From NCBI GenBank assembly GCA_025210155.1, contig JAOASE010000003.1:11519-75518 (forward strand): a stretch of 64,000 nt of DNA, read 5' to 3'. This document shows, piece after piece, positions 1,621-20,329 of this stretch (position 1 is the stretch's first letter; each line of letters opens with the position of its first letter). Origin of the DNA: Alphaproteobacteria bacterium. Lineage in GTDB: Bacteria; Pseudomonadota; Alphaproteobacteria; Rs-D84; CASDRH01. The notes beneath the pieces were generated by a model that saw only the letters and a list, made by a program, of their open reading frames with translations, searched no databases and was not told where the DNA came from. A program made the position numbers and the translations under genes.

Positions 1621-1863
1621 ATGTTTTATTTTTATTATAAAAACAAAGATGGAAATCGTAAGCTAATCGACACTTTTTTAGGAATTGAAATTAGAAATAA
1701 TGAATACATTCTAACAAAAGACAATGTAAATCAAGTAGGAAGATTTATCTACCATGTAGTGAATACAACTTCAATATATGATTTTACAATTATGTATAAC
1801 GATTGCATAGAAATGATTTCAGAACCAGGTGATGTTATAATAACTAGATATAGATACTACTAA
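1621..1863 (+). CDS. Hypothetical small protein (80 aa)
   Basis: The ORF sits between a promoter-like TTGACA and a downstream hairpin/T-run. No recognisable motif. Confidence 0.3.
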   Translation: MFYFYYKNKDGNRKLIDTFLGIEIRNNEYILTKDNVNQVGRFIYHVVNTTSIYDFTIMYNDCIEMISEPGDVIITRYRYY

Positions 1864-1975
1864 CAAACACCAGACGTCCTTTCGAAAGAGAGGGCGTTTT
1901 TATTTTATTGACATTTTAAGTTGAATAAGCTTTTATATAAACAAACAAAAAACATTTAAATCTAATATAATTTAT

Positions 1976-2833
1976 ATGAAAAACAGCGAAGTATTAGAGA
2001 GTTTAAAAAACTCTAAATCAGATCATTTCAAGGCAGGTTTCTTTAAAATTCTAGGTATACTAGGAACCGGAAAGGAAATTTATGAAAATTATCTAAACGA
2101 TAAGGTTAATCTTTCCCCATCAAAGATAACATTTAAGGATATGATAAAAGAATCTTTTAAAGAATCTTTCTTTCCAGTTTTATCCAAGGATATTCCGCAA
2201 AGAAAAGAGTTCCTAGAAGACTTAGTAACCTTATGGAAGTTGTTGCGAAAACCTAAGTTAGTAAGCCGAGGGCCATTACCTGAAGACATAATTGTTCCAA
2301 GAAACCTATATTTTTTGGAAAGTTATTATGAGAATGACGGAAGAATCGAACCTGAGGATATTAAGCAGTTAATGCAGTATCCTGAATTTTCAAATCTGCT
2401 TCAAAACAAAATTGCGTGGCTCAAGGAAAAGAAATACCAAAATTATTTTGGTTTTAACTTTAAGGCAGATTATATAGCTATGATTACCTTCGAGCATAAT
2501 AAGTGGATGTTTCCATACTTTTTTAAAAGATATGAAAATATCGAAAAATTTATGGAAGAAGGTCGTAGTTGTAAATCATGGATAGATGTTTTCGTTAAGA
2601 ATTATGAAAGAATTGGAGAAGCATTCGATGATTTTTTTATAATACCAGAAGATACGCTTATTAATTACAGCTTAAGTTATTGGCCTGACGTTGATATCGA
2701 AAATCCAAAAGGGAACTTTAAAAAGTTTCTGGATAAAGCGAAAACACTGGATGAAAAAGACAGGAACAACGAAACCATTATAGGTAGAAGAGTAGATGAT
2801 TTAAAAATGTGTTATGACATTTTAAGTGATTAA
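1976..2833 (+). CDS. Hypothetical protein (285 aa)
   Basis: Long ORF with a clean intrinsic terminator immediately downstream. No recognisable motif. Confidence 0.5.
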   Translation: MKNSEVLESLKNSKSDHFKAGFFKILGILGTGKEIYENYLNDKVNLSPSKITFKDMIKESFKESFFPVLSKDIPQRKEFLEDLVTLWKLLRKPKLVSRGPLPEDIIVPRNLYFLESYYENDGRIEPEDIKQLMQYPEFSNLLQNKIAWLKEKKYQNYFGFNFKADYIAMITFEHNKWMFPYFFKRYENIEKFMEEGRSCKSWIDVFVKNYERIGEAFDDFFIIPEDTLINYSLSYWPDVDIENPKGNFKKFLDKAKTLDEKDRNNETIIGRRVDDLKMCYDILSD

Positions 2834-2859
2834 AATTTACTTCTCTTTAATTAAAGAAG

Positions 2860-2888
2860 CACCTGCAAATTCGCAGGTGTTTTTTTAT
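2860..2888 (+). terminator. Intrinsic terminator (cacctgc-aaattc-gcaggtg + T8)
   Basis: Perfect 7-bp stem, 6-nt loop, T-run. Confidence 0.8.
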
Positions 2889-2979
2889 TTCTCACAACAT
2901 ATTTCATAAAATATTTGATAAAACTCTGTTTTTATAGTAATATATACACAGACAAGTTAAACTTTAAAACACATCTGTC

Positions 2980-3372
2980 ATGGGGAATATACCATTAGAA
3001 TTATTTAGCCTTGGGCTTAGCAGCATTGGGGTTATAGCTGAAAATCCTCCTCCAATTAATGAAGGAATTAATCTTTCAGGGGTAGAGGAAGCTGATATTA
3101 TAATGGAAGTAGAAGGAGAAAATGGTTATGAAAGACTATTTCAATCTCCTAAAACAACATTTTGTCATGCGGCAAAGGGAAAAGAAATTCGTTTCGGTTC
3201 TAGATTAGACGGTGATAAAGAAGTAAAAATCAGTAGTTATAAAGCTCCTGAAGGAAAAAAACTAAAATTCAGGCTTTATCATGGAGGATGTTTTTTACAT
3301 TTATCATTTACTGAAATAGAAACCTACGCAAGTAGTAGTATGTTAGGAACTTTTAAAATTAACAAGGTTTGA
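2980..3372 (+). CDS. Hypothetical protein, tandem paralog A (130 aa)
   Basis: Shares QSP...FG..L..DK..K.SS.K...KFRLY...G with the next ORF. Followed by a hairpin plus T-run at about 3433-3477. Confidence 0.45.
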   Translation: MGNIPLELFSLGLSSIGVIAENPPPINEGINLSGVEEADIIMEVEGENGYERLFQSPKTTFCHAAKGKEIRFGSRLDGDKEVKISSYKAPEGKKLKFRLYHGGCFLHLSFTEIETYASSSMLGTFKINKV

Positions 3373-3544
3373 AAATTTCTATCATATTCCAAATCACCCT
3401 CACACAAAGACCCAAACGGAAAACATAATAACACTCGTAAGTATTTTAATTACGGGTGTTTTTATTTTATTAAATTCATTGACTTATGAAATATCTATAG
3501 TAATATGCCAGAACATTACAAACAATTTAAACTTAATTTAGAAT

Positions 3545-3925
3545 ATGAACGATTTAACATTTCTTTATGTTTCTTCAAGATTAAACGAGACAGGATGTGT
3601 AGTAGAAGGTGGTAACATAGTAGAGCCACCGGTTGACTTAGAAAATGCAGATTTCGGAGAATTCCTTCTTGAATACCAAAATGAAGACGGTAAATACTTA
3701 AGAGTGCTCCAATCTCCTCAAATCCTAATATGCATAGAAGAAGATAACATAAGATTAATATTTGGAAAGAACTTAAGCAAAGATAAAAAAACTTATAAGT
3801 CTTCTAAAGAAGATGAAAATATAAAATTCAGACTTTATTACAATGGAGTTGTAATAAATATGGAAGTTAAAGAAGCCGCTATATCTAGCGACACAAATTT
3901 AACAGGAACTTTATACGTAAAATAA
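3545..3925 (+). CDS. Hypothetical protein, tandem paralog B (126 aa)
   Basis: Paralogous to 2980..3372 (LRVLQSPQ...KFRLYYNG). Followed by the terminator gcgcccc-ataata-ggggcg plus T. Confidence 0.45.
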   Translation: MNDLTFLYVSSRLNETGCVVEGGNIVEPPVDLENADFGEFLLEYQNEDGKYLRVLQSPQILICIEEDNIRLIFGKNLSKDKKTYKSSKEDENIKFRLYYNGVVINMEVKEAAISSDTNLTGTLYVK

Positions 3926-7290: not shown

Positions 7291-7599
7291 ATGTCAGCAG
7301 AAGTAGAAATGATGAGAACTGGAATAGACATCTATTGGTGGATATCTGTCATAGAAATCCCAATCTTAGGACTTCTATTCTATCTTATAAGGAATAATGG
7401 GGAAGCAACTATTAAAGGGGATGAAAAGTTAGAGAATAAACTAGACTATCAAATTTCAGAATTACTAAAAGAATTATCAGAATTCAAGCTATATTCAGCA
7501 AAAGAATATGCATCAATATCATACATAAAAGATCTAGAAAAACGATTGACAAATCACTTAATAAGGATAGAAGAAAAAGTAGAAAATACAAAATTATAA
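7291..7599 (+). CDS. Hypothetical protein with an N-terminal TM helix and a coiled-coil (102 aa)
   Basis: SD GGGGAGAGA precedes the ATG. Hydrophobic IYWWISVIEIPILGLLFYLI segment. Confidence 0.4.
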   Translation: MSAEVEMMRTGIDIYWWISVIEIPILGLLFYLIRNNGEATIKGDEKLENKLDYQISELLKELSEFKLYSAKEYASISYIKDLEKRLTNHLIRIEEKVENTKL

Positions 7600-7652
7600 A
7601 CAAGTTTATTTAAAGTAAAGCTAGAATCGAATTGCAGAGAAGGGAGAGAACA

Positions 7653-8177
7653 ATGAGGCAAAGCATAAAAAAGGCACAATTACCAAATAATTTTAAAATA
7701 AGATTTATCATTTCAAAAACAATATTTGATGAATTAAAGAGCATGCCTCACAAAACCAAACAAAACTTCGAACTAATAGAAACTATGGCTCAAAGCATAA
7801 TAAATCTTCTAACGAATAATTCAAAAGAAGTTATCAAAACGACATGCAAAACGCTGTATGAGAATATAAGGTATACGCAAAAATATTTAATGCATCACAC
7901 AGAAGATGACCTAAAAAAATTTAACTATGGACTTACAAAAGATGTGTATGATGAAGCTTTCCGACAATATAAAGAAAACAAATTTTATAAATCATATCAA
8001 AGAACTGTTACTAAATTATTAAAAGGGTATCACGAACACAAAACAGAAGATAAATATAGAGAAAAACTTTTTCACTATCATAAAGAACAACACTTTCCAG
8101 ATTGGGCAAAAGAACAGTCTGAAATATTGAAGCTCTCGGGCTTCATTTTTTATAACCAAATAAGATGGAGTAAATAA
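7653..8177 (+). CDS. Hypothetical protein
   Basis: ORF 7632..8177. The ATG at 7653 follows GAAGGGAGAGAA, the likely start. Confidence 0.4.
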   Translation: MRQSIKKAQLPNNFKIRFIISKTIFDELKSMPHKTKQNFELIETMAQSIINLLTNNSKEVIKTTCKTLYENIRYTQKYLMHHTEDDLKKFNYGLTKDVYDEAFRQYKENKFYKSYQRTVTKLLKGYHEHKTEDKYREKLFHYHKEQHFPDWAKEQSEILKLSGFIFYNQIRWSK

Positions 8178-8179
8178 AA

Positions 8180-8398
8180 ATGAGAATATTAATAAAAGAA
8201 CTACTAAAAGTACTAGTCGTAGATATTGCAAAATTTGTAATAAACATAGCTAGTAAACCAGTTAAAGATATTGCAAGTAGTGTTGCAAAAGCAAGCGCAA
8301 ATGCAGTCGCAGTAAGAGCAGAAAAAACAAAAGCAGATATAAAAGAAATGATTGAATCATCTAAAGAAAAGCTGGAGGAAAAACTAAATGACAAATAA
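8180..8398 (+). CDS. Small Ala/Lys-rich protein (72 aa)
   Basis: Overlaps the next ORF in ATGA...TAA fashion, suggesting translational coupling. Confidence 0.3.
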   Translation: MRILIKELLKVLVVDIAKFVINIASKPVKDIASSVAKASANAVAVRAEKTKADIKEMIESSKEKLEEKLNDK

Positions 8399-9164
8399 CG
8401 AAATCAAAAAAGAAGTTAAGGAAGAAACTAAAAAGGTTGAAGAAGTTACAATTTCTAAAAAACCAGATTTCTTACCAAAAAAATTCTGGGATGAAGAGCA
8501 GGGCACAACAAGGCTGGAAGAAATGTCTAAAAGTTATAAAGAGTTAGAAAAAAAACTTTCTCAATTAAGCCAAGAAGTAAATTCCCTTAAGGAGGAAAAG
8601 ATAGCAGCAGAGGATAAAAATCTTTTAAAAGGAGAAAGCTTACCATCATCTCCAAAACAATACTTAGACGAAATTGATTTCGATATAATAAATGCTTCAG
8701 AAGAAATTAACCAAGTTCTTTTCGATGCGAAATATTCCGTTGAGCAAGTAAGAACTTTCTACGATGTTTTAGTTAAGTTTATAATGCCTGAAATCTTAGA
8801 GCTATATCATGATGTGAAAGCATATAATGATCTAGAAAAATTAAAGGATTATTTTGGCGGAGAAGAAAAATTTGCTTCTATCTCTAGACAGATTAATTCC
8901 TGGGCAATTAAAAACCTTGAAAGCAGAGTTTACAAGAGTTTATCAAAGGATAGCAAAGGAGTTATTGCTATGTATAAAATGATGCAAGAAGAAAAAAACA
9001 ACAATTCCTCATCAATAAATTCTCTACAAGACGGACACAAAAAAACAAGAGAAGAAGAGGAAAAACATCTTAAAGATATGATGAAAAATCCTTCTTACTG
9101 GCGAGACAAAGATCCTGAATATAGAAACAAAGTAGAAGAAGGTTTTAAGAATCTATACACATAA
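8388..9164 (+). CDS. Putative scaffolding protein (T7 gp9-like C-terminus)
   Basis: Acidic coiled-coil protein. Its C-terminal MMKNPSYWRDKDPEYRNKVEEGF resembles the T7 gp9 C-terminus (…MSDPRYRTDANYRRQVEQKV), as recalled. Lies upstream of the capsid gene. Confidence 0.55.
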   Translation: MTNNEIKKEVKEETKKVEEVTISKKPDFLPKKFWDEEQGTTRLEEMSKSYKELEKKLSQLSQEVNSLKEEKIAAEDKNLLKGESLPSSPKQYLDEIDFDIINASEEINQVLFDAKYSVEQVRTFYDVLVKFIMPEILELYHDVKAYNDLEKLKDYFGGEEKFASISRQINSWAIKNLESRVYKSLSKDSKGVIAMYKMMQEEKNNNSSSINSLQDGHKKTREEEEKHLKDMMKNPSYWRDKDPEYRNKVEEGFKNLYT

Positions 9165-9378
9165 ATTAGTATAATAAATAGTATTTAAAGTATTTTGTGC
9201 GAATAGATGTAAAGATGATTTTTATATTTGGTATTGTGTATATTTTAATACTCAATTGCCAAAGATTAAAATCATTTTTTACGATTAGCTCGTGCAAAAG
9301 AGTTTAAATAATAATAATAGCTTGAAAAAAAGAACTAATAAGATATAATACGCTCATCAAAATAAGAAAGGAGCAATT

Positions 9379-9987
9379 ATGCCTTATAACAATAACAGAC
9401 GCGGTCCATATAAAAGTAACAACCGCAGAAGAGCAAAAAGCAAAAAAGGTTTGATTTATAAAATAAACGAAAACCTAATAATGAAATGGTCAATATTATT
9501 ACTAGTTATCTTCCATTTCGCAATGAGCGCTATGTTTAGAGCAGAAAACTTAAACCAAGTATTTGGTCTATCGGCAATAGCTGAATTTGGAGTTCTATCT
9601 TTAAGAATATTCCAATCATTCTTATTCATTTTCTTACCATTAGTATTAATCAAATACTTCAAAGTTAGAAAAGCAAGAATAAGCTTAAGCTCAATAGCAA
9701 GAAAAGCAATATGCAAAAGAATTGGCCTAGCAGTATTATTAGGTCTAGCAATCACATTGCTATCATTCTTCTCACCAAACAACGGTGGAGAATTCTTAGT
9801 AAGAAGATATGTAGGAATTTTTGCTATACACTCAATCTATGTGTTCTTAATGATTTCAGCATTAACAGGAATTTGGAAAGGTTTCTCTTTCATCTTCGAC
9901 GCTGAAAAACAACAAAACAGAAGAAGAAATAACAACGGATATAATAAAAATAATAGACGTCCAAGAAGAAATTATTCTAAAAAATAA
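9379..9987 (+). CDS. Membrane protein with four TM helices and Arg/Asn-rich N- and C-terminal tails
   Basis: N-terminal NNRRGPYKSNNRRRAKSKK and C-terminal KQQNRRRNNNGYNKNNRRPRRNYSKK tails flank the hydrophobic helices. Strong SD AAGGAG. Terminator at 10017-10050. Confidence 0.5.
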   Translation: MPYNNNRRGPYKSNNRRRAKSKKGLIYKINENLIMKWSILLLVIFHFAMSAMFRAENLNQVFGLSAIAEFGVLSLRIFQSFLFIFLPLVLIKYFKVRKARISLSSIARKAICKRIGLAVLLGLAITLLSFFSPNNGGEFLVRRYVGIFAIHSIYVFLMISALTGIWKGFSFIFDAEKQQNRRRNNNGYNKNNRRPRRNYSKK

Positions 9988-10016
9988 TTTTAGTTTCTAC
10001 TGAGAAGTAATTACAA

Positions 10017-10050
10017 AGCCCTAAGTTTTCCTAGGGCTTTTTTGTTATTT
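10017..10050 (+). terminator. Intrinsic terminator (agcccta-loop-tagggct + T-run)
   Basis: Perfect 7-bp stem, 8-nt loop, TTTTTGTTATTTTT. Confidence 0.75.
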
Positions 10051-10337
10051 TTCTAAATAGCAATTAAGAGACAAACCGAAAGGTCCTCTAAACAAAAAAC
10101 AAATAAAATCAAGGCGTTTTAATCAAATTAAAACACAACCTATCGCAATTAAATAAATCAAAAAAAATAATATCACGAAAATCTTCGCAAATAAGTATTT
10201 AGGGTTTAACCGAGTATTTTGTGCGAAGGAAGGTAAAATAAATTTTAAATCGCAGGGAGTTTATAGTTAATAAATGACCAAGATTTAATAATTGTAATTT
10301 TGCCTTAAATTCGTGCAAAAGACGAAAGGTAAAAAAA

Positions 10338-11165
10338 ATGGCTAATACTATAGACCAATCATTCATAAAAAACTTCGAAGCAGAAGTTCACTTAGCATAC
10401 CAACAAACAGGTACAAAATTAAGATCAACAGTTAGAGTTAAAAACGACGTAATTGGATCAGCAACAGTATTCCAATCAGTAGGTCAAGGAACAGCATCTA
10501 CTAAAGAAAGAAACGGCTTAATCCCAGTGATGAACGCAACACACACACCAGTAGAATGTGATCTACAAGACTACTACGCAGGCGACTGGGTAGATAAACT
10601 AGATGAATTAAAAACAAACATCGACGAAAGAGCTGTTATCGCATCAGCAGGTGCATACGCTTTAGGTAGAAAAACAGATGAGCTAATCATCACAGAACTG
10701 TCTAAATCTACTCAAGAAGTTGTTGAAAATTCAGAAGGCTTAACAAAAGGCAAAATCATGAAAGCTATCGAAACATTAAACGCAAATAATGTTCCAGACG
10801 ATGGTCAAAGATATGCTGTTGTAGGCGTTCACCAATGGACTGAATTATTAAATATGCCAGAGTTCACTTCAGCAGATTACGTAGGTGATAACTATCCACT
10901 AGTTAACGGTGCAGAAGCAAGAAAATGGATGGGGGTAATTTGGATCTTACACACAGATTTGCCATTAAGCACAACAACAAGAGAATGCTTCATCTACCAC
11001 AAGAATGCAATCGGTCACGCAATCGGACAAGATGTAAAAACAGACATCAGCTGGCAAGGTGAAAGAGCTGCAAACTTTGTATCAAACTGCATGAGCCAAG
11101 GTTCAGTTCTTATCGACGCAAAAGGCGTAGTAAAAGTATCTTGCGACGACACAACATCAGTTTAA
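10338..11165 (+). CDS. Major capsid protein, T7 gp10-like (short form)
   Basis: The C-terminal GERAANF...GVVKVS resembles T7 gp10 ...ERARRANF...AVVFKV. Position between the scaffold and gp11-like genes. A strong terminator follows immediately, as Tφ follows gene 10 in T7. Confidence 0.6.
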   Translation: MANTIDQSFIKNFEAEVHLAYQQTGTKLRSTVRVKNDVIGSATVFQSVGQGTASTKERNGLIPVMNATHTPVECDLQDYYAGDWVDKLDELKTNIDERAVIASAGAYALGRKTDELIITELSKSTQEVVENSEGLTKGKIMKAIETLNANNVPDDGQRYAVVGVHQWTELLNMPEFTSADYVGDNYPLVNGAEARKWMGVIWILHTDLPLSTTTRECFIYHKNAIGHAIGQDVKTDISWQGERAANFVSNCMSQGSVLIDAKGVVKVSCDDTTSV

Positions 11166-11189
11166 AAACTGCTTGAGATATAGAATATA

Positions 11190-11216
11190 AGACCGTTTTC
11201 AAAGCGGTCTTTTTCT
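11190..11216 (+). terminator. Intrinsic terminator directly after the capsid gene (agaccg-ttttcaaag-cggtct + T)
   Basis: 6-bp stem plus T-run. Same position as T7 Tφ. Confidence 0.7.
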
Positions 11217-11374
11217 CATTTAAAGCATACATTTTGAATCAACACTTTAACTAATTTACAATATCCAAGTTGACTCAACACTTCAATTGAATCAATTAAT
11301 TAAGAATATAAGCCTAAGAATCGGAAAAGACTCAAACTTTAACCAATAAAATCACCAATTTACAGGAGAACAAA

Positions 11375-11953
11375 ATGCCATCATCTACAACAAAAATCGA
11401 TATTTGCTCAAAGGCCTTAATGAAGATAGGAGCAAGTCCAATCCAATCACTAGAAGAGAATACTTCAGAAAGCATTATCTCATCTCAATTTTATGACATA
11501 GTAAAAGAGAGTTTATTATCAGAACATGAATGGTCTTTCGCAACAAAAACACAGGAATTAAATATCCTGAATGTAGAGAGTGATCAAGAAGGATACGAGA
11601 ATGTTTTCCAATTACCACATGACCTAATAAGAGTGTTAAGCATAAGCTCTTCAGCAAATGGAATTTCTATAGACTATAAACTTTATCAAGATGAAATTCA
11701 TACCAACGCAGAGAAAGTTTATATCACATACATATATAGAGTCGGAGAAAAATACTTTCCTCAATTCTTTGTAAATTTAATGACTACTTCTTTAGCAAAA
11801 GAATTTGTTATGCCACTGACGGAAGATAACTCAAAATATAACTCATTAATGAACGAAAGTATAATGCTTTTATCAAAAGCTAAAAACCAAGATTCAGATC
11901 AAACAAAAATTAAAAAGATAAAAACATTTAGTTTAATTTCAAGCCGTAATTAA
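11375..11953 (+). CDS. Tail tubular protein A (adaptor), T7 gp11-like
   Basis: 192 aa (T7 gp11 is 196 aa). ICSKALMKIGASPIQSLEE...SEHEWSF resembles gp11 VNDILASIGEPPVSTLEG...SRGWTF. Confidence 0.7.
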   Translation: MPSSTTKIDICSKALMKIGASPIQSLEENTSESIISSQFYDIVKESLLSEHEWSFATKTQELNILNVESDQEGYENVFQLPHDLIRVLSISSSANGISIDYKLYQDEIHTNAEKVYITYIYRVGEKYFPQFFVNLMTTSLAKEFVMPLTEDNSKYNSLMNESIMLLSKAKNQDSDQTKIKKIKTFSLISSRN

Positions 11954-11981
11954 AAAATTAAATTAATAAAGGATACAATAT

Positions 11982-14063
11982 ATGCAAAAGTCATACACAA
12001 AAAGCAACAACTTCAGATTTGGAGAAGTGAATTATTCTGGCTTAGAGAACTTAGGATCCAAGTATAAAAACAATACATCTTTCCTTCAAAGAAATATGCA
12101 GGTAGAAGAAACTGGTCAAATCAAACGAAGACCTGGATTAAAGAAAATTTCAGACCTTGAAGAGAATGCTAAGATTATTTCTATGCAGACTAGCATAGAA
12201 GACAAATATATTTTAGCTATAGGAGAAAGTAAGATAAGAGTTTTCAAGGACGATAAGCTAATCTGTACAATATCAAAAAGCCCCTTTAAAAAAGAAATAC
12301 TTTCAAGTTTGCAATATATCTCTAAAGATAATAAAATTTTCGTTACCCACCCAGACATAGAAACAAAAGTCATAGTAAAAGAAAGCGATACTAATTGGAA
12401 AATTCAAAATATAGAATTTGATATAGATTCTTATACGGGTGAAAGTTTTGAGCCATTCGCATACTTTGAAGATATGCAAAATAAAGGTATAAAAGCAACT
12501 CCTATAATAATAGATCCAGAAGATTTAGATTGGGATCAAGAGGGCGCTGGTGAATGGGTTTTAAATCCAGATTGGATGGAGAGAAATGAACCAGCATATA
12601 CTTTCGTAGAGGACGAATCTACACCTCCCCCTCAAGTAGAAATAACATGCTCCGATATATATGATATATTCAATTTCGATTGCAAAAATATAAAAATGAG
12701 AATTGGAGATGGGGAATATCGAATTACCCACGTAGTAACAACAAGGAAGTTACTAGGAGAAATAATAAAGCTTCCTACTGATTTTAAAGAGAAAAATCCT
12801 TCAGTCTCAGAACAAGCCTTTTCAAAAAAGCGAGGTTGGATAAGAAGTATAAATTTCTATCAAAACAGAATGGTGGTAGGTGGATCAAAATCGCTTCCCA
12901 AAAGAATATGGATGTCTAAAACAGATAACTTCTTTAATTTTAATTTAGGATCAGCATACGATGGAGATGCTATAGAATTTGATATACTTTCCCAAAATGA
13001 AGAAACTATTCAAACAATATTTACAGGAAGACATCTTCAGGTTTTTACAAATAATGCTGAATGGATAGTAACAGGATTTCCTATCACACCAACTAGTATA
13101 CAATTGCAGAAACAAACAGAACTAGGTTCAAACCAAGACAACTATCTTAGCCCTCAGTTTATAGAAGGTTCTACAATTTTTATATCTAAGAACAAATCAG
13201 AAGTTTGCGAATTCTTCTTTGGAGAAATAGAGGAGCAATATCAAACAGAAAACCTAGTTAGCTTATCTAATCATTTATTAAATAAACCACTAGAAACATC
13301 TTACAATAAAAATGAAAAAATATACTTTATAGTAAACAACGATGGAAGCCTAGCCACATTGACCATGAGTAAAAATTATGGAGTTAGATCTTGGGGACTA
13401 TGGGAAACAAAAGGTTCATTTATCTCAGTGGAAAGTTTGAATGAAGAAACTTATGTGGTAGTAAGAAGAAACGACAAACCATATTTAGAAAAGTTTGATT
13501 TCACAGAATTAAATACCTATACAGATTGCGAGATTACCATATCCAGAGAGGATGATAAAAGAGATAATATATTTGAAATTATAGATTATCCAGAACTTTT
13601 AAAAATAAAGGACTTAAAAGAGCAAACTAATGCAATAATTTTAGCAATAGGAGACGGCGAATTCCTAGGAGAACCTATCATAGAGAATGATGCTATAAAA
13701 CTTCAAAAACCAGTTAACAATCTAAGATTAGGAATAGCATATAGGCATATCCTTGCTCCATCACCAGAGATGATAGAATTTAAAAAGATAAGATTGCTGG
13801 AAGTTTCTTTCAGATTATCAGAAAGTAAAAACCTTTCAATAGATACTGGGCAAGGAATAAAGAATATATCATTAAAAGAATACGATAATTCAGAAACATT
13901 CCTTTCTTCAGAAAATATAAAAGGAACTTTCTCAGGGGATATAAATATAAAATCATTCGGATGGAAAAAAGCAGGAAGCCAAATACTTTGGAAAATAGAT
14001 GATTATTATCCAAACAATTTCAAGGTAATTTCATCACTCTCAAAATTTATTGTAAATAAATAA
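11982..14063 (+). CDS. Tail tubular protein B (nozzle), T7 gp12-like
   Basis: 693 aa. N-terminal ETGQIKRRPGLKKISDL...KIRVFKDDK resembles gp12 ETEGLQKRPPLVFLNTL...GIRVFDLSGNEK. Internal FYQNRMVVGGS...NFFNFNLGS resembles gp12 FFRNRLGFLSG...KYFNFYPAS. Confidence 0.7.
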   Translation: MQKSYTKSNNFRFGEVNYSGLENLGSKYKNNTSFLQRNMQVEETGQIKRRPGLKKISDLEENAKIISMQTSIEDKYILAIGESKIRVFKDDKLICTISKSPFKKEILSSLQYISKDNKIFVTHPDIETKVIVKESDTNWKIQNIEFDIDSYTGESFEPFAYFEDMQNKGIKATPIIIDPEDLDWDQEGAGEWVLNPDWMERNEPAYTFVEDESTPPPQVEITCSDIYDIFNFDCKNIKMRIGDGEYRITHVVTTRKLLGEIIKLPTDFKEKNPSVSEQAFSKKRGWIRSINFYQNRMVVGGSKSLPKRIWMSKTDNFFNFNLGSAYDGDAIEFDILSQNEETIQTIFTGRHLQVFTNNAEWIVTGFPITPTSIQLQKQTELGSNQDNYLSPQFIEGSTIFISKNKSEVCEFFFGEIEEQYQTENLVSLSNHLLNKPLETSYNKNEKIYFIVNNDGSLATLTMSKNYGVRSWGLWETKGSFISVESLNEETYVVVRRNDKPYLEKFDFTELNTYTDCEITISREDDKRDNIFEIIDYPELLKIKDLKEQTNAIILAIGDGEFLGEPIIENDAIKLQKPVNNLRLGIAYRHILAPSPEMIEFKKIRLLEVSFRLSESKNLSIDTGQGIKNISLKEYDNSETFLSSENIKGTFSGDINIKSFGWKKAGSQILWKIDDYYPNNFKVISSLSKFIVNK

Positions 14064-14150
14064 TATTAACTATTGATTTAAACTTTCATATGAGTAAACT
14101 ACGATGAGTTATTTTATATAACTAAATTTAAATATGAAGGAGAAATCATA

Positions 14151-14429
14151 ATGAAAAAAGTATTACTTACAGCTATTATAGCTTTAACAGCATCATGTGC
14201 TACAAGACCTCACCAAGTTACTAACGTTAAAGTAGCTCCAAGTGAATTAAAAGTTGGAAAATCTTGTGAAGATAGATTTTTACACATGTTCCCAATGGGT
14301 TCAAAAAATGGAAACTCAATTCTTAGAGCTAAAGAAAGTGCTGGTATTACACAAATTATGAGTGTCGATGTAGAAGGTAGAAACTGGATCTTAGGTTCAA
14401 CTGAATGTACTATCGTTACAGGTAAATAG
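14151..14429 (+). CDS. Small lipoprotein (signal peptide plus lipobox LTASC)
   Basis: MKKVLLTAIIALTASC. Strong SD AAGGAGAAATCATAATG. Own terminator hairpin at about 14445-14480. Confidence 0.5.
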   Translation: MKKVLLTAIIALTASCATRPHQVTNVKVAPSELKVGKSCEDRFLHMFPMGSKNGNSILRAKESAGITQIMSVDVEGRNWILGSTECTIVTGK

Positions 14430-14516
14430 TTTACAAAACTAAAGAATTAAAATTACAGTCGGAAATATCCGGCTGTTTTTTTTATACAATAATCAATCAC
14501 AAAAGGAGAGATAAAG

Positions 14517-14993
14517 ATGATATCACTAATATCTAGTGTCAACTCACTAGGATCTGATCTAATTTCAGGGAGCAGTTCAAAGGACGAAAGCCGATTGGCT
14601 AGAGAAAGAGCAAAAGAAGAAAGCAAAATAAATAAAGAAATAGCAGAAGTTAATAAGTACTATTCTGATTTAGAAAGTAGAAATCTTTTAGAAGAAAATC
14701 TAAGCAATATTTCAGCAAACTACGGAGCTTATAATATGAGTTCTACAGAAGGTTCTGCAAAAGCCGCAAAGAATAGAGCCGTTAGAGATTACAATAATGA
14801 CACAGCTCAAAGGCAAAAGCTATTTGATCTAAATATGGAAAAAGCAGACAAACAACTTCAATTTGATACAGAGGCAAATCTATTAGAATATGATAAAAAT
14901 TCTAAAAGAAATAGCCTTAACAATTTCGAAAATATATTAAAAGAAATCGAAAGCCACGACGAAACTCTAAGATCTCAAAGATATAGAACATAA
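14517..14993 (+). CDS. Hypothetical coiled-coil protein (phage module)
   Basis: SD AAAGGAGAGATAAAGATG. No recognisable motif. Confidence 0.4.
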   Translation: MISLISSVNSLGSDLISGSSSKDESRLARERAKEESKINKEIAEVNKYYSDLESRNLLEENLSNISANYGAYNMSSTEGSAKAAKNRAVRDYNNDTAQRQKLFDLNMEKADKQLQFDTEANLLEYDKNSKRNSLNNFENILKEIESHDETLRSQRYRT

Positions 14994-15005
14994 AGGAGAG
15001 AAAGT

Positions 15006-15719
15006 ATGATAACTAACAAATCAGTCCTAATAACATACCTAGCAAATGGAACTTCAAAACAATTTTCATTCCCATTTAAAATATATTCAGCAGATGAATT
15101 AAAAGTGTCCATAAATGGAAAAGAAATACAAACTACATTCATTATAGAATATCACGAAGATGTAGAAGGTGGAATGATAACATTTGAAACAGCTCCAGTT
15201 ACAAATTCAGAAGTCTCAATCAAGAGAGTTCTAGATATTACGAGAAAGCACGACTTTCAATCAGGTGGAAGCTTCAGAGCTGAAGACATAAATCAAGAAC
15301 TAGACTACCAAACTCTGTGCCTTCAACAAGTTAATTACGAACTTGGGAATGCAATGAAATTTGGATCAGATGTCGAAGATCAAGATATAGACTTAACTGT
15401 TCCAGAACCAAAAGCGGGTTGTATGATGGTTTGGAACAAAACAGAAAATGGACTAGAACTAAGAAACGCTGACCTAATAATAGAAGCAAGCAATGAAGCT
15501 CATGACTATGCAACTATCTGCCAAGATATGTACGATGCAATGTCTACATTATTAGGAACTTCAGAGACAGCGGGTTTAGCAGGAAAAATCCAAGACATAT
15601 TAACTTTCTTAAATAATAAATTCCCAGAAGACTTTGATGATAATGGTGAGATAAAAGATAGCTCATTAGTATCTAATGACTTAGGAGAAATCACAGAAGG
15701 CGATAATGGCGGAATTTAA
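15006..15719 (+). CDS. Tail fibre protein, N-terminal (tail-attachment) domain only, T7 gp17-like
   Basis: MITNKSVLITYLANGTSKQFSFPFKIYSADELKVSING...VSIKRVLDITRKHDFQSGGSFRAEDINQ parallels T7 gp17 MANVIKTVLTYQLDGSNRDFNIPFEYLARKFVVVTLIG...IELRRVTSTTDRLVDFTDGSILRAYDLN. The protein is 237 aa against 553 aa for gp17. Confidence 0.7.
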   Translation: MITNKSVLITYLANGTSKQFSFPFKIYSADELKVSINGKEIQTTFIIEYHEDVEGGMITFETAPVTNSEVSIKRVLDITRKHDFQSGGSFRAEDINQELDYQTLCLQQVNYELGNAMKFGSDVEDQDIDLTVPEPKAGCMMVWNKTENGLELRNADLIIEASNEAHDYATICQDMYDAMSTLLGTSETAGLAGKIQDILTFLNNKFPEDFDDNGEIKDSSLVSNDLGEITEGDNGGI

Positions 15720-16347
15720 AGATGAAAAAAATTTAAAAGAAAATATAGAAAAAATAACATTTTTAGATTTCATAGAATTATGGAATCAAGATCAGGAGCA
15801 AACAACTCCTGCCCACCATAAAAAGATTGCACGGTGGTTAGAAAAATTATGGCTTGAAGAAAAGTCAGACAGAAGAGGGGTTTTAATGTCCTTCAGAGGG
15901 TCAGGTAAATCTACCATAGTAGGTTTATTCTGCTGTTGGCTACTTTATCAAAACCCAAATCTAAGAATATTGGTAATATCAGCAGAAGAACGCCTAGCTG
16001 GTAAAATGAGCAAAAATGTCAAAGCCATAATAGAAAGACATGCGCTGCTTTCACATCTTATACCAAAGAAAAAGGGAGGGCGATGGGCAAGCAAAGAATT
16101 CACCATAGAAAGGTTCAAAGAAATGAGAGACCCTTCAATGCTTGCCATAGGACTTTCAGGAAACGCAACGGGATCTAGAGCCGATATAATAATATGTGAC
16201 GATGTCGAAGTCCCAAATACTTGCGATACTGAATTGAAAAGAGAAGAGTTAAGAGAGAGATTGGCAGAGTTAGAATTTATAATAACGCCAAAAGGAATGA
16301 TTCTATATGTGGGTACTCCCCATACAGAAAATAGTATTTATTATTAA
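15706..16347 (+). CDS. Terminase large subunit, ATPase domain (T7 gp19-like), N-terminal ORF of a split gene
   Basis: Walker A FRGSGKST and Walker B IIICDDVEV. LRILVISAEER, TGSRADIIICDDVEVPNT and LYVGTPHTE match T7 gp19 LKILIVSASKER, TGSRADIIIADDVEIPSN and IYLGTPQTE. Ends with TAA at 16345-16347. Confidence 0.85.
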   Translation: MAEFKDEKNLKENIEKITFLDFIELWNQDQEQTTPAHHKKIARWLEKLWLEEKSDRRGVLMSFRGSGKSTIVGLFCCWLLYQNPNLRILVISAEERLAGKMSKNVKAIIERHALLSHLIPKKKGGRWASKEFTIERFKEMRDPSMLAIGLSGNATGSRADIIICDDVEVPNTCDTELKREELRERLAELEFIITPKGMILYVGTPHTENSIYY

Positions 16348-16681
16348 AAAAAGAATCAGTAAAAGGGAAATATTCATTTTTGGACAAAAAAATATGTCAA
16401 GAAAGTTCTAAGAAAAAACAGTGGCTTACAACTTAAAAATAAGAAAAATGAAAAAAATGTCAAAAAATAGTTGACAAAATAAAATGAAAGTTCTAAACTA
16501 AACTTACTTTCGGAGATCTCCCTACTTATTTCTCTCTCCTCTTTAAGAAGACTCCGAAAGTTCTTTTTAATCCTCGGAGTTTCCTTTATATATCCTTTCC
16601 TCCTTTTTTTAAGAGCTCCGAGGTTTATTTAAAATGCGCCGCAAGGCGTTTTTTTATTGTCTAAAATCCAGGGGAGAATAA
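16348..16681 (+). other. 334-bp non-coding insertion splitting the terminase gene; carries two ~64-bp tandem hairpin repeats, a TTGACA-N17-TAAACT promoter-like site and a GCAA-tetraloop terminator
   Basis: Hairpin A 16506-16561 (actttcggag / ctccgaaagt, 10 bp, 36-nt CU-rich loop). Hairpin B 16572-16623 (cctcggag / ctccgagg, 8 bp, CU-rich loop). Units A and B align as direct repeats. 'gaaagttct' occurs three times. Terminator 16636-16657 (cgcc-gcaa-ggcg + T7). Then the SD GGGGAGAATAAATG. Confidence 0.6.
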
Positions 16682-17551
16682 ATGCAAAAGATTTACAACA
16701 AAACAATAGATAACGAATTAAAACCTAAAGAAGAAGAAACAGAAAAGCTTCTATCAGGATATAAAAGATTAAAAATTCCTTTGTTATCAGAGGCTGGAAG
16801 ATCAGCTTGGTCAAAAAGATTTCCTCTGAAAAGAATTAAAGAACTTCGTAAACGAGTAGGGGAAAAGAAATTCCAAGCTCAAATGCAATTACAACCAGTA
16901 AACTTAACAGATCCATTTTTCGATATAAATGATTTCAAAACATATGACATATGCTTTTCAAAAACAGAGCAAAACTTCCGATCAGTCTATAAAATTAATA
17001 ATGAAAAAGTCGTCCAGGCCTCATCCTATTGGGATCCATCTTCATGTGGAAGAAAAAGAGACGGTTCAGTTCTAGTCATAGCATTCAAAGATAACAAAGA
17101 CAGAATATACATAGAAAAAATCATATACTTAAACTCAATTATCAAAAGAGGCGAGGAAGGAATAACGAAACAAATAGAAGAAGTTATTTCTATATTAAAA
17201 AAATACGATATAGGAATAATTCACATAGAAACAAATGGTATAGGGAAATTTATCCCAGAATTAATAAACAAGGAAATTCGCCGACTACGACTAAAAATAG
17301 AAGTCTCAGAAATTTATAATCATAACAGCAAGAGTATAAGAATTATGGAAGGAATAGAACCTCTAGTTTCAGCAGAAATAATAAGCTTTAATAAAACAAT
17401 ATTTTCTAAGGCAAATCAGTTCATAAATGAAATTAAAAATTGGCGACCAAACATAGACGGAAAAGATGATGGATTGGATGCCGTTTCAGGCATAACATTA
17501 AATAGGTTTAAGAATATAATTCCATCACCATCAATTATGAAATTTTATTAA
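16682..17551 (+). CDS. Terminase large subunit, nuclease (C-terminal) part, T7 gp19-like
   Basis: RIKELRKRVGEKKFQAQMQLQPVNLTD matches T7 gp19 [28 protein letters not shown]. An in-frame TAA lies immediately upstream of the ATG. Confidence 0.75.
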   Translation: MQKIYNKTIDNELKPKEEETEKLLSGYKRLKIPLLSEAGRSAWSKRFPLKRIKELRKRVGEKKFQAQMQLQPVNLTDPFFDINDFKTYDICFSKTEQNFRSVYKINNEKVVQASSYWDPSSCGRKRDGSVLVIAFKDNKDRIYIEKIIYLNSIIKRGEEGITKQIEEVISILKKYDIGIIHIETNGIGKFIPELINKEIRRLRLKIEVSEIYNHNSKSIRIMEGIEPLVSAEIISFNKTIFSKANQFINEIKNWRPNIDGKDDGLDAVSGITLNRFKNIIPSPSIMKFY

Positions 17552-17630
17552 AACTTTTTACTTTTATAAATATATGATTTTTGTTATAATAAAGCCAAAA
17601 TATACTAATAATTTTAAAAGGAGTTAGATT

Positions 17631-18077
17631 ATGACAAAATTCAATCAAAGAGGTAGAAGTATTGTAGAAGTTATCGGTGTTCTAGCAATAGCTTCAATCG
17701 GTATCGCTCTTGCAATGAGAACTTATCAAAAGAATGATGCAAAAGTAAAAATTACAAAGACTATGTATAATATTTCAGAATTAACAGATAGTATTAAAAC
17801 TATATACTGGGGAAGAAACAGCTATAGTGGAATAAATGTTACTCGTCTAGAAAATAAAGGTGTGGATCCTAAATTCTTAAGAGATGCATATGGTACAAGT
17901 TTAGTAATAGGTTCTCAATCTCCATTTAGTTCATATACAATCCAAATTGTAAATATTGAAGATCAAGAAGATTGCTATAAATTTGCTGCTAAAAAACTAG
18001 AAGGTATGGATGAAGCTGAAACGACAGATACATGCTCATCTACATCTAATAAAACAGTTACTTTCACTTTTAATTAA
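17631..18077 (+). CDS. Type IV pilin-like protein (prepilin-type N-terminal domain), tandem paralog 1
   Basis: N-terminus MTKFNQRG|RSIVEVIGVLAIASIGIALA: a Gly followed by Glu at +5 and a hydrophobic helix, as in class III signal peptides (KGFTLIELMIVVAII...). SD AAAGGAG. Confidence 0.55.
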   Translation: MTKFNQRGRSIVEVIGVLAIASIGIALAMRTYQKNDAKVKITKTMYNISELTDSIKTIYWGRNSYSGINVTRLENKGVDPKFLRDAYGTSLVIGSQSPFSSYTIQIVNIEDQEDCYKFAAKKLEGMDEAETTDTCSSTSNKTVTFTFN

Positions 18078-18089
18078 GGAATTTATAAG

Positions 18090-18557
18090 ATGAGAAAAAA
18101 TAATCAAAAAGGTATGTCTATCGTAGAAGTTTTAGGAACTTTAGCAATAGTAACAGTAATGTCAGTTCTTATAGTTTCTTTCTATACGAAAGTATCTACT
18201 AAAGCTACATTCAAAAGAACAGAATTCTTATTAGAAGATATTAGAGGAAAAATAAATTCTATTTATATAGATGGTAATTATTCAACTCTAACACTAGATA
18301 ATTTAAATGATGAACTAGAAGGCCAAGAATTAATAAAAGCAAAGCACCCATTCGGTGGAGACGTTGCTCTTTGCGGTTCATCAGACGGTTTCAATATCCG
18401 TTTAAGTGACCTAACTCTTGAAGAGGCTACTAAATTAGAAGCACTTGGAGAAGGTGACTTAGAAAAAGTATCAGACGATGTTTATAGAATAATTGCTTAC
18501 AAATCTAATAGTAAAGCAAAAGATTACGACAACACAAGATTTTGTAACAACTTCTAA
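18090..18557 (+). CDS. Type IV pilin-like protein, tandem paralog 2
   Basis: MRKNNQKG|MSIVEVLGTLAIVTVMSVLIV, the same architecture. Followed by the terminator 18584-18608. Confidence 0.55.
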   Translation: MRKNNQKGMSIVEVLGTLAIVTVMSVLIVSFYTKVSTKATFKRTEFLLEDIRGKINSIYIDGNYSTLTLDNLNDELEGQELIKAKHPFGGDVALCGSSDGFNIRLSDLTLEEATKLEALGEGDLEKVSDDVYRIIAYKSNSKAKDYDNTRFCNNF

Positions 18558-18583
18558 TAAAGTTTAAACAAAACTAATGAAAA

Positions 18584-18608
18584 CGCCCTCAATTGAGGGT
18601 GTTTTTTT
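18584..18608 (+). terminator. Intrinsic terminator (cgccctcaattgagggtg palindrome + T7)
   Basis: Perfect palindrome followed by a T-run. Confidence 0.75.
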
Positions 18609-18793
18609 ATAAAAAACTTCATCAAGCAATCTCTCCCCAGAGAGTTTTGGATAGTTTGCTTTAGATAGAAGCGAAAATGATTTTTAAATTTAATATTGCG
18701 TATATTAATACTCAATCGTTGAATTTCAAAATTATTTCTCGCGATTAGATGAAGTTAAATATACGAAACATTAATATTATAAAGGATAATTAA

Positions 18794-20329
18794 ATGAAAA
18801 AAATACCAGAAATAAACTCAAACTTAATAAATAGAGATACTCTAATTAAAGAATATAAAAAGGCAAAAAACAAAAGAAGCAATTGGGAAAATCTTTGGGA
18901 AGATTGCATAAAATATTCATCCCCAGAAAGATATGGAAGCTTCTATAACTCATTCCAAGAAGCTAATAAAAACAATGTAGATATCTACGACTCAACTGCA
19001 ATTTGCGGGGTAGAAAATTTAGTATCTACAATAGCTTCAAGCCTAACACCATCATATGAAAAATGGTTTAATTTATCTCTAGGAAATATCACTGTTGAGG
19101 ATGAAACAACAAAAGCAAATATTGAAAAAGATATAGAGAAAATAGAAAAAACAATTTCAGAAAATATCTCACTTTCAAACTTCGCGACAGAAATACAACA
19201 ATGTTACTTTGATCTAGTTACATTGGGAACCTCTTGTCTGTTCTTCGAAGAAAACCAAATAGGTAAAAAATCTGCCTTCAGGTTTAAATCAGTTCCATTA
19301 AACCAACTGACTATAGATGAAGACAGCGAAGGTAACGTAAATAAAATCTATAGAGAAACAAGCATAACGGTAGAAAATCTACAACTTCGTTTCCCAGAAT
19401 TTTTTGAAGAAAATGGTTTAAGTAACCTCGCAACAAAGTTCAAAGAAGAGCGAGTTAAACTGATTGAAGCTGTAGTCCCTAATATGAAAGAAATAGGACA
19501 GCAAGGCTTTGTATATACAGCATTTATAGAAGATGAAAAAAATATCCTTACACCTAAAAAATCAGCAAAAGAAGATAACATATTAGTATTAAAAGAAGGT
19601 GTCTTACAAAGCTCTCCATTCATTTGTTTCAGATGGTTAAAAACCTCAAGCGAAGTATATGGAAGATCACCGGTAATGAAGGTTCTTCCAGATATCAAAA
19701 CAGCAAACAAGGTTGTAGAACTAACTTTACAAAACGCAACAATAGCAATCTCAGGAGTATGGCAAGCTGAAGACGACGGAGTAATTAACTTTAATAATAT
19801 TGATCTGTCACCAGGTTCAATAATACCAAAAGCAATAGGCTCTCAAGGTCTATCACCATTACAAACAGGAGCTAACTTCAACGTTTCACAACTAGTCCTT
19901 TCAGACTTAAGAAACAATATAAATAAAGCGTTCTATACAGATGTTCTAGGTAAGCCGGAAGAAAGCAAACAAATGACTGCAACAGAAGTTTCTGCAAGAA
20001 CAATGGAATTATATCAAACACTTACAGCAGTGTTCTCACGACTTCAAACGGAACTCCTTACACCATTAATCGAAAGAGCAGTAAGCATCCTTAAAAGAAG
20101 AGGGGAGATAGCAAACCTAATCATAGATGGAAATATAATCTCATTAAAATACAGTTCACCAATAATGAACGTAAACAACGACAGAGAAATAGCAAACATC
20201 CAAAGATTTATATCTTCACTAAGCATTCTAGGAGAAGGTCAATTATCCAACATAATAGATACACAAAAGTTAATAAACCACCTAGCAGAAATCACATCCA
20301 TCCCAAAAGGATTGCTAAAAACAGCCTAG
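18794..20329 (+). CDS. Portal (head-to-tail connector) protein, T7 gp8-like
   Basis: 511 aa (T7 gp8 is 536 aa). The N-terminal YKKAKNKRSNWENLWEDCIKYSSP...IYDSTAICGVENLVSTIASSLTPSYEKW parallels gp8 RLKNDRAPYETRAQNCAQYTIP...WQAVGARGLNNLASKLMLALFPMQTW. Confidence 0.7.
   Translation: MKKIPEINSNLINRDTLIKEYKKAKNKRSNWENLWEDCIKYSSPERYGSFYNSFQEANKNNVDIYDSTAICGVENLVSTIASSLTPSYEKWFNLSLGNITVEDETTKANIEKDIEKIEKTISENISLSNFATEIQQCYFDLVTLGTSCLFFEENQIGKKSAFRFKSVPLNQLTIDEDSEGNVNKIYRETSITVENLQLRFPEFFEENGLSNLATKFKEERVKLIEAVVPNMKEIGQQGFVYTAFIEDEKNILTPKKSAKEDNILVLKEGVLQSSPFICFRWLKTSSEVYGRSPVMKVLPDIKTANKVVELTLQNATIAISGVWQAEDDGVINFNNIDLSPGSIIPKAIGSQGLSPLQTGANFNVSQLVLSDLRNNINKAFYTDVLGKPEESKQMTATEVSARTMELYQTLTAVFSRLQTELLTPLIERAVSILKRRGEIANLIIDGNIISLKYSSPIMNVNNDREIANIQRFISSLSILGEGQLSNIIDTQKLINHLAEITSIPKGLLKTA

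Follow-up and report, generated by a model that had tools for sequence, protein, structure and literature searches.

What could a phage tail fibre be for once it has neither shaft nor receptor-binding domain? The question is raised by a 64,000-nucleotide (nt) stretch of an Alphaproteobacteria metagenome-assembled genome (MAG; GenBank assembly GCA_025210155.1, contig JAOASE010000003.1, positions 11,519 to 75,518 of the forward strand), hereafter the window. It carries a 13-kb cluster of podovirus-like structural genes (window 7291-20329), among them one for a 237-amino-acid (aa) relative of the T7 tail fibre gp17, which we call the stub fibre. We lean towards reading the stub as the functional minimal fibre of a T7-tail-type particle, its genes forming a cluster that resembles a gene transfer agent (GTA) and appears to be fixed in alphaproteobacterial chromosomes.

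Residues ~7-115 of the stub are a T7 gp17-type attachment domain. The Pfam family PF03906 (Phage_T7_tail) matches residues 7-115 with 27.6 bits, above its curated gathering cut-off of 25.2. Twenty PHROG families match at E<=0.1 (best E 1.7e-16), 11 of which are annotated as tail or tail fibre and the remaining ones as of unknown function; for 19 of the 20 the match falls on the first ~40-140 profile positions, the profiles being mostly 470-1560 positions long. Against the PDB, a profile of the stub family finds Dpo31/Dpo36 (3e-17), LME-1 orf22 (4e-9) and T7 gp17 (0.011), with all matches confined to residues 2-118.

Structure prediction tells the same story. The AlphaFold2 monomer model, with a mean predicted local distance difference test score (pLDDT) of 64 and about 80-87 in the N-terminal domain, consists of a beta-sandwich (8-74) and helices at 92-115, 155-184 and 191-205, with residues 212-237 disordered. 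In a Foldseek search of the PDB the top 25 hits are podovirus tail-complex chains throughout (E 2e-7 to 2e-2), including those of LME-1, Carin-1, Kp7/Kp9, P-SCSP1u, PhiM1, HRP29 and T7 (7EY9, 7BOZ). Entries that name their chain point to the tail-bound fibre N-terminus (T7 gp17 in 7BOZ, the proximal half-fibre in 8DSP), and the PDB profile search identifies 9EFK_AE and the 8CK1 chains as fibre or tailspike. The template modelling scores are low over the whole query (0.2-0.3), because the N-domain alone aligns. As expected of a gp17-type domain, which in solved tails docks onto adaptor and nozzle, homologues of both are co-encoded just upstream of the fibre; they resemble the connector and nozzle of Carin-1 (8CK1) and LME-1 (9EFK), which are also the best fibre matches.

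The second half of the protein is a different matter. An exhaustive HMMER search with the stub returned 6855 relatives (a word-indexed single-protein search found the stub alone), most of them 300-890 aa long and aligned to residues ~1-160 only, the part of the stub common to long fibres. At least 17 proteins of 220-246 aa from other genomes, copies from the fetched loci included, align over the full length. Mean pairwise identity in this short family is 34% in the beta-sandwich, 44% in the helix at 80-118, 38% at residues 119-154, 28% in the helical hairpin (155-206) and 32% in the tail, which covers only about residues 207-237. The tails are acidic, with a net charge of -3 to -10 across the last 40 residues, and bear between one and three copies of a D-[YWFLN]-G-x-[IVL] repeat. 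Such a D-x-G repeat occurs within the last 60 residues of 12 of the 19 proteins of <=250 aa, versus 3 of 155 longer relatives; most of the seven short proteins that lack it look like fragments or non-family members. The longer relatives instead continue as an Ala/Thr/Gln-rich coiled coil, followed by a globular end of ~100-130 aa. Judged by these alignments, the C-terminal half is a separate, conserved module, neither a truncation nor merely an acidic tail: since it is unlike the corresponding part of long fibres, the stub is no simple truncation.

Could the gene nonetheless be a functionless, truncated remnant of a full-length fibre? The stub is under half the length of T7 gp17 (553 aa, the length of 7BOZ_a), and the neighbouring terminase gene is split. 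Against this, the same C-terminal motifs recur, at 28-44% identity, in its 17 full-length homologues of 220-246 aa, whose hosts range in GC content from 30% to 55%; this divergence excludes recent copies of one element. No frameshifted continuation lies downstream, and the module that ends the protein differs from its long-fibre counterpart. In a tblastn search of the window, 156 C-terminal parts (from 147 longer relatives and nine neighbouring fibre-like proteins) matched nothing outside the fibre open reading frame (ORF). The stub is thus not a full-length T7-type fibre, as no shaft and receptor-binding domain are present in it or elsewhere in the window; nor are there fibre or spike remnants elsewhere in the window, or tailspike genes without an N-domain in the window or the related clusters. 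The ORF itself has an AGGAGA ribosome-binding site a few nt 5' of its ATG. NCBI annotates the stub as a protein of an Alphaproteobacteria MAG, encoded on a 1.05 Mb contig (the one carrying MCT4552151.1). The first 14 nt of the terminase ATPase ORF, which begins at 15706, overlap the end of the fibre ORF, and this translational coupling, with overlaps of 4-29 nt, is kept in the window and in three related loci (L004, L012 and L024). The stub gene occurs on three other contigs, but these match the window at 99.99-100% identity, which makes a polymorphism-based selection test uninformative; more distant pairs are too diverged for synonymous divergence (dS). Conserved short homologues and the lack of a downstream remnant effectively rule out truncation, and we consider a pseudogene highly improbable. 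End-to-end conservation within a seemingly vertically inherited cluster speaks for an adapted short form and not a broken gene.

A preliminary description of this locus, made by reading the sequence, had likened the first ~110 residues to the gp17 N-domain and asked for a profile check. That check, run with Pfam, PHROG and PDB profiles and joined by Foldseek, upholds the similarity. It had also noted that the protein ends at 237 aa without shaft or receptor-binding domain, in agreement with the tblastn search and the model, and had named a frameshifted continuation as the sign of a pseudogene; the search gave none, which leaves an adapted short form. Its "short acidic tail", on the other hand, has to give way to a conserved module of a helical hairpin with D-aromatic-G repeats.

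What kind of particle would use such a fibre? The features of the cluster are listed in Table 1.

Table 1. The stub fibre, its parts and the surrounding cluster. Positions refer to the window unless a related locus is named; residues are those of the stub.
Feature	Position	Strand	Basis or remark
Left end: conserved 102-aa protein (phrog_29007) and weak hydrolase-like 181-aa protein	7291..8177	+	
Scaffold protein, weakly T7 gp9-like	8388..9164	+	conserved in relatives
Major capsid protein	10338..11165	+	PF19821 8e-78
Tail tube A / adaptor (gp11-like), expected docking partner	11375..11953	+	phrog_394 7e-46; PDB 8CK1_E connector 4e-9
Tail tube B / nozzle (gp12-like), expected docking partner	11982..14063	+	phrog_376 3.5e-78; PDB 8CK1_A tail nozzle 3e-20
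TRL-family lipoprotein	14151..14429	+	PF13146; weak match to adhesin Lsa14; inserted between nozzle and gp14-like genes
gp14-like small internal/ejection protein, 158 aa	14517..14993	+	positional homologues align
Stub tail fibre, 237 aa	15006..15719	+	ATG start, TAA stop; Pfam/PHROG/PDB profiles and AlphaFold model
T7 gp17-type tail-attachment domain, residues 7-115	15024..15350	+	beta-sandwich 8-74 plus helix 92-115; PF03906, Foldseek
Conserved LPxPKAGxxxVWN segment, residues 119-154	15360..15467	+	still common to long fibres
Helical hairpin (two predicted helices), residues 155-205	15468..15620	+	short-fibre family only; occupies the place of the long fibres' coiled-coil shaft
FPEDF motif and acidic disordered tail, residues 207-237	15624..15716	+	three D-x-G-x-I repeats: DNGEI, DLGEI, DNGGI
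Terminase large subunit, N-terminal ATPase part, separate ORF	15706..16347	+	phrog_38 5e-52
Promoter-like site and small-RNA-like element	16472..16660	+	CU-rich loops on two hairpins, followed by a terminator
Terminase large subunit, C-terminal/nuclease part, separate ORF	16682..17551	+	phrog_38 8e-35; PF22530
Two type IV pilin-like paralogues, 148 and 155 aa	17631..18557 (17631-18077, 18090-18557)	+	sub-threshold N_methyl matches
Portal protein	18794..20329	+	PF12236 1.6e-107
ftsZ (Tubulin and FtsZ_C domains) in related clusters	L012 12972-14654; L024 14658-16178; L025 11331-12746		

Apart from one weak hydrolase-like gene the cluster consists of structural genes, the gene content of a GTA, and its relatives are composed likewise. 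A membrane-protein gene sits between scaffold and capsid. No integrase, polymerase, primase, replication protein or repressor was matched by Pfam or PHROG in the cluster or its flanking ORFs. The gp14-like protein is the sole member of the gp14-16 set in the window cluster: PF24072 (T7_gp14) scores below threshold in five of its ten positional homologues and has a precomputed match at the P0015 locus, while no gene of gp15 or gp16 size occurs in the window cluster or in any relative examined. Housekeeping genes flank the cluster, namely RmuC, carbonic anhydrase, an ion channel and DJ-1 on one side and biotin ligase, PFK, PBP5, an amidase, EPSP synthase, TsaD, LpxB and a Mur ligase on the other, and GC content is host-like, ~31% throughout the window. 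By its genes, then, the cluster has the genomic attributes of a GTA, and it is probably a domesticated podovirus-like particle system.

Evidence of fixation comes from related loci, gathered also by a profile scan of genome contigs with a 5-sequence alignment (a metagenome scan gave no new locus). Short-fibre clusters are found in L004 (from IMG/VR), L013, L015, L023, L024 (a 455-kb contig) and L018 (a 111-kb contig), in L012 (a 223-kb contig of a Hadza-gut Alphaproteobacteria MAG) and in L014 and L025, both Rickettsiales MAGs. Three of them (L012, L024 and L025) have the host ftsZ within the cluster, where it separates the terminase ATPase part from the portal gene. The L012 cluster also holds a tRNA gene; accB/accC are found upstream there, mipZ downstream. 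In L025 the upstream side carries accC, and the genes on the downstream side include ddl and topA. L024 contains an amidase gene besides ftsZ. The window cluster is without ftsZ, and its flanks differ from those of the ftsZ-bearing relatives.

FtsZ identities among these three genomes are 52% (L012-L025), 41% and 39%, and L012-L025 is also the closest pair for each element protein: capsid (77 versus 61-66%), tube B (48 versus 31-33%), portal (59 versus 42-45%) and fibre (35 versus 28%). Gene order is rearranged among relatives, with ORFs still intact. Parallel divergence with FtsZ, ORFs that stay intact despite rearrangement and host-like GC together suggest that the cluster has been domesticated, having long been inherited vertically and kept by purifying selection. 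It is in L012, L024 and L025 only that the long vertical inheritance expected of a GTA is seen.

At 12390-12800 of L012, beside ftsZ, the tRNA gene is followed by three repeats of its 3' end with ~100-nt units between them; these look like the scars of serial integrations. In the window, a tRNA-Met (1380-1456) precedes four ORFs at 1621-3925 without Pfam or PHROG match, which perhaps form a small island that has nothing to do with the cluster.

Clusters with longer fibres (299-536 aa) occupy recurrent chromosomal positions. Some stand beside pyrD and a HAD hydrolase (L019 15831-17822, L021 14748-16769; in L018, at 17953-18614, the HAD hydrolase only), others adjoin methylmalonyl-CoA mutase and gcrA (L020 16927-19718, L022 13991-16834). 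The hosts at these sites range in GC from 38% to 66%, their flanking host proteins are 36-43% identical, below the element proteins, and no integrase was found in the longer-fibre clusters. A PF11351 "GTA_holin_3TM" holin stands beside a cell-wall hydrolase in L010 (16266-16757), L019 (14832-15329) and L021 (11997-12401); this holin of the long-fibre relatives was not detected in the window.

These loci also bear on a second explanation, by which the cluster is an ordinary temperate or defective phage or a satellite, its other modules encoded elsewhere or lately lost, and the short fibre is simply the fibre type of this lineage. The longer-fibre clusters L021 and L010 are more phage-like, with an S24 repressor, lysozyme and holin, intact terminase and T7 gene order; the short-fibre locus L004 was binned as viral in IMG/VR; and the closest cultured phages by capsid sequence are lytic HTVC010P-type pelagiphages (Hodr, 45% identical). 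Yet no integrase or replication genes were found in any of about 15 loci, deeply diverged genomes carry ftsZ, a tRNA gene and an amidase gene within the cluster, GC equals that of the host, and the ORFs have outlasted the reshuffling of their order. We hold the phage or satellite account to be distinctly unlikely. The related viral contigs were inspected for terminal repeats or circularity, and none were found.

If the stub is a working minimal fibre, its mode of action can be sketched as follows. Six stub trimers would dock at the adaptor/nozzle junction, each ended by a short helical bundle (residues 155-205) in place of the coiled-coil shaft and receptor-binding domain. Three flexible acidic tails with D-[aromatic/L/N]-G-x-[I/V/L] repeats would leave each bundle, and these roughly 18 tails per particle would be its working end, contacting the envelopes of sister cells in a weak, multivalent manner. 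A particle serving only its own lineage would make a diversifying receptor-binding domain unnecessary. RcGTA delivers DNA only into the periplasm; the loss of gp15 and gp16, with a gp14-like protein kept, suggests that the present particle would likewise deliver DNA to the periplasm only. The earlier proposal that the particle no longer needs host-range determinants thus holds in spirit: the genes form a structural, chromosomal cluster, interleaved with ftsZ in relatives.

Alternatively, the stub may only dock, its hairpin and D-x-G tail recruiting a separate distal protein, such as an adjacent pilin-like product or a chromosomally encoded spike. There is a precedent in the adapter Gp37 of Zindervirus (SP6/K1-5/K1E), which has a gp17-type N-domain, lacks a receptor-binding domain of its own and holds tailspikes (PMC6966330). 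A disordered tail with short conserved repeats is typical of docking peptides, and in related clusters medium-length fibres are followed by extra fibre-like genes (DUF4376, Laminin_G_3, DUF7483). RcGTA, whose fibres and head spikes are encoded outside its main cluster, offers an analogy. Candidate partners are at hand in three short-fibre loci: pilin-like genes come right after the terminase C-part both in the window and in L024 (12427-12897; 30% identity, E 3.5e-6), and L018 has four prepilin-type genes around the cluster (at 2448-3332 and 10884-16981), one of whose products, 1391 aa long, begins with the canonical prepilin N-terminus GFTLIE. However, no candidate partner is conserved across short-fibre clusters, L004, L012 and L025 having no pilin-like gene within theirs, and a spike-like gene is absent from the 64 kb. 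Nor does the stub belong to the Gp37 adapter family, since BLASTP and hhalign align residues 11-111 only and the C-terminal part is unrelated. Altogether, an adapter or anchor role seems a possibility to be taken seriously, albeit a doubtful one. The preliminary description had put forward the TRL lipoprotein as another distal element; this is unlikely, as the gene is unique to the window lineage, with no homologue in the related loci fetched and no TRL match in the gene tables of later loci.

A bolder version joins the two ideas. The clusters would be an unrecognised lineage of T7-tail-type GTAs, vertically inherited over the time in which FtsZ identity fell to ~40%, in which the stub tails dock pilin-like or competence pseudopilus proteins that several of the clusters co-encode, so coupling adsorption to periplasmic delivery, with no gp15/gp16 channel, and to pilus-dependent uptake. 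We offer this as speculation and think it unlikely to be right in full.

The gene next to the fibre deserves a description of its own. The terminase is cut directly after its GTPHT motif, within the ATPase region, and each ORF has a start codon. The same split is found in L004, L012, L023, L024 and L025, and in L012 and L025 ftsZ and the portal gene stand between the two ORFs; an intact terminase, encoded by one gene of ~495-520 aa, is found in L018 and the long-fibre clusters. Just 5' of the intact terminase lies a homologous gene of 96-113 aa (L018 8894-9235, L019 11918-12232, L021 12439-12729) which could be the small terminase; clusters with a split terminase lack it, and in them the fibre gene directly adjoins the terminase ATPase ORF. 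In the window the two terminase ORFs are parted by a 335-nt non-coding gap containing a small-RNA-like element with a TTGACA promoter-like site, large anti-Shine-Dalgarno-like loops and a minimum free energy of -41.3 kcal/mol (z = -4.5). Such an element stands directly 3' of the terminase ATPase ORF also in L004 (~8870-9000), L024 (~11330-11440) and L012 (11440-12300). An intron or known RNA was sought in the gap: a chance snoRNA match aside, no Rfam family reached its gathering score or E<=1.

Several points weigh against a functional minimal fibre in a fixed GTA-like cluster. The whole case is computational and drawn from genome sequences alone. The C-terminal model is a monomer prediction of low confidence, with a pLDDT of 34-72 past residue 120. 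A receptor-binding protein unlinked to the cluster may be encoded elsewhere in the ~1 Mb genome. The split terminase may be inactive. The window also lacks a 75-82 aa protein (motif NLSVLAYANGFTLWHY) that is found between capsid and tube A in L004, L012, L013-15, L024 and L025; its own 210-nt interval there (11166-11374) has stop codons in all three forward frames. Because this protein is missing, the window copy of the cluster may be impaired in part. In addition, the L020 and L022 clusters are visibly decayed, and the co-phylogeny comparison rests on three genomes, too few for a real test.

Should a minimal fibre of this kind be borne out, host-associated or reduced Alphaproteobacteria would possess a second particle system, unrelated, of podovirus origin and inherited vertically, which would broaden the picture of phage domestication. 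It would also reveal what a T7-type virion can do without when it serves its own host. Missing here are the shaft and receptor-binding domain of the fibre, the ejection proteins gp15 and gp16, an undivided large terminase and possibly the small terminase. The short-fibre family defines a gp17-type protein of minimal size, whose C-terminal module is new and a candidate docking or binding peptide.

How does the stub compare with known systems? Like T7 gp17, it has a homologous N-terminal attachment domain, by profile and predicted fold, and is encoded downstream of the adaptor and nozzle genes; unlike the 553-aa gp17, it replaces coiled-coil shaft and receptor-binding domain by a helical hairpin and an acidic repeat tail. 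With Zindervirus Gp37 it shares shortness, a retained gp17-type N-domain and the absence of its own receptor-binding domain, but the C-terminal parts are dissimilar (K1-5 gp37 has 320 aa), and Gp37 acts with the tailspikes gp46/gp47 of the same genome, the like of which occur neither in the window nor in the related clusters. The stub also resembles the medium and long fibres of related alphaproteobacterial clusters (299-613 aa; P0004, L019, L021), which belong to the same cluster type with the same gene neighbours. There the N-domain is shared through LPxPxAGxxxVWN (~160 residues, 35-40% identity), whereas the stub has the D-x-G tail in place of the Ala/Thr/Gln-rich coiled coil and the ~100-130 aa globular domain.

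At the level of the cluster, a literature search for T7-like GTAs in Alphaproteobacteria or Rickettsiales turned up only RcGTA-type elements and FpGTA of Faecalibacterium. HTVC010P-type pelagiphages differ in having large internal-protein genes, which the window cluster lacks. Like RcGTA-type GTAs and FpGTA, the cluster is a chromosomal unit of ~13-14 kb with head, tail and lysis-type genes and no replication or integration genes, conserved over deep host divergence, although here it is known from its genes alone. It differs from RcGTA, a derivative of an HK97-type siphovirus, in being of T7-tail and HTVC010P-capsid type, and from FpGTA, a system of Firmicutes, in being alphaproteobacterial.

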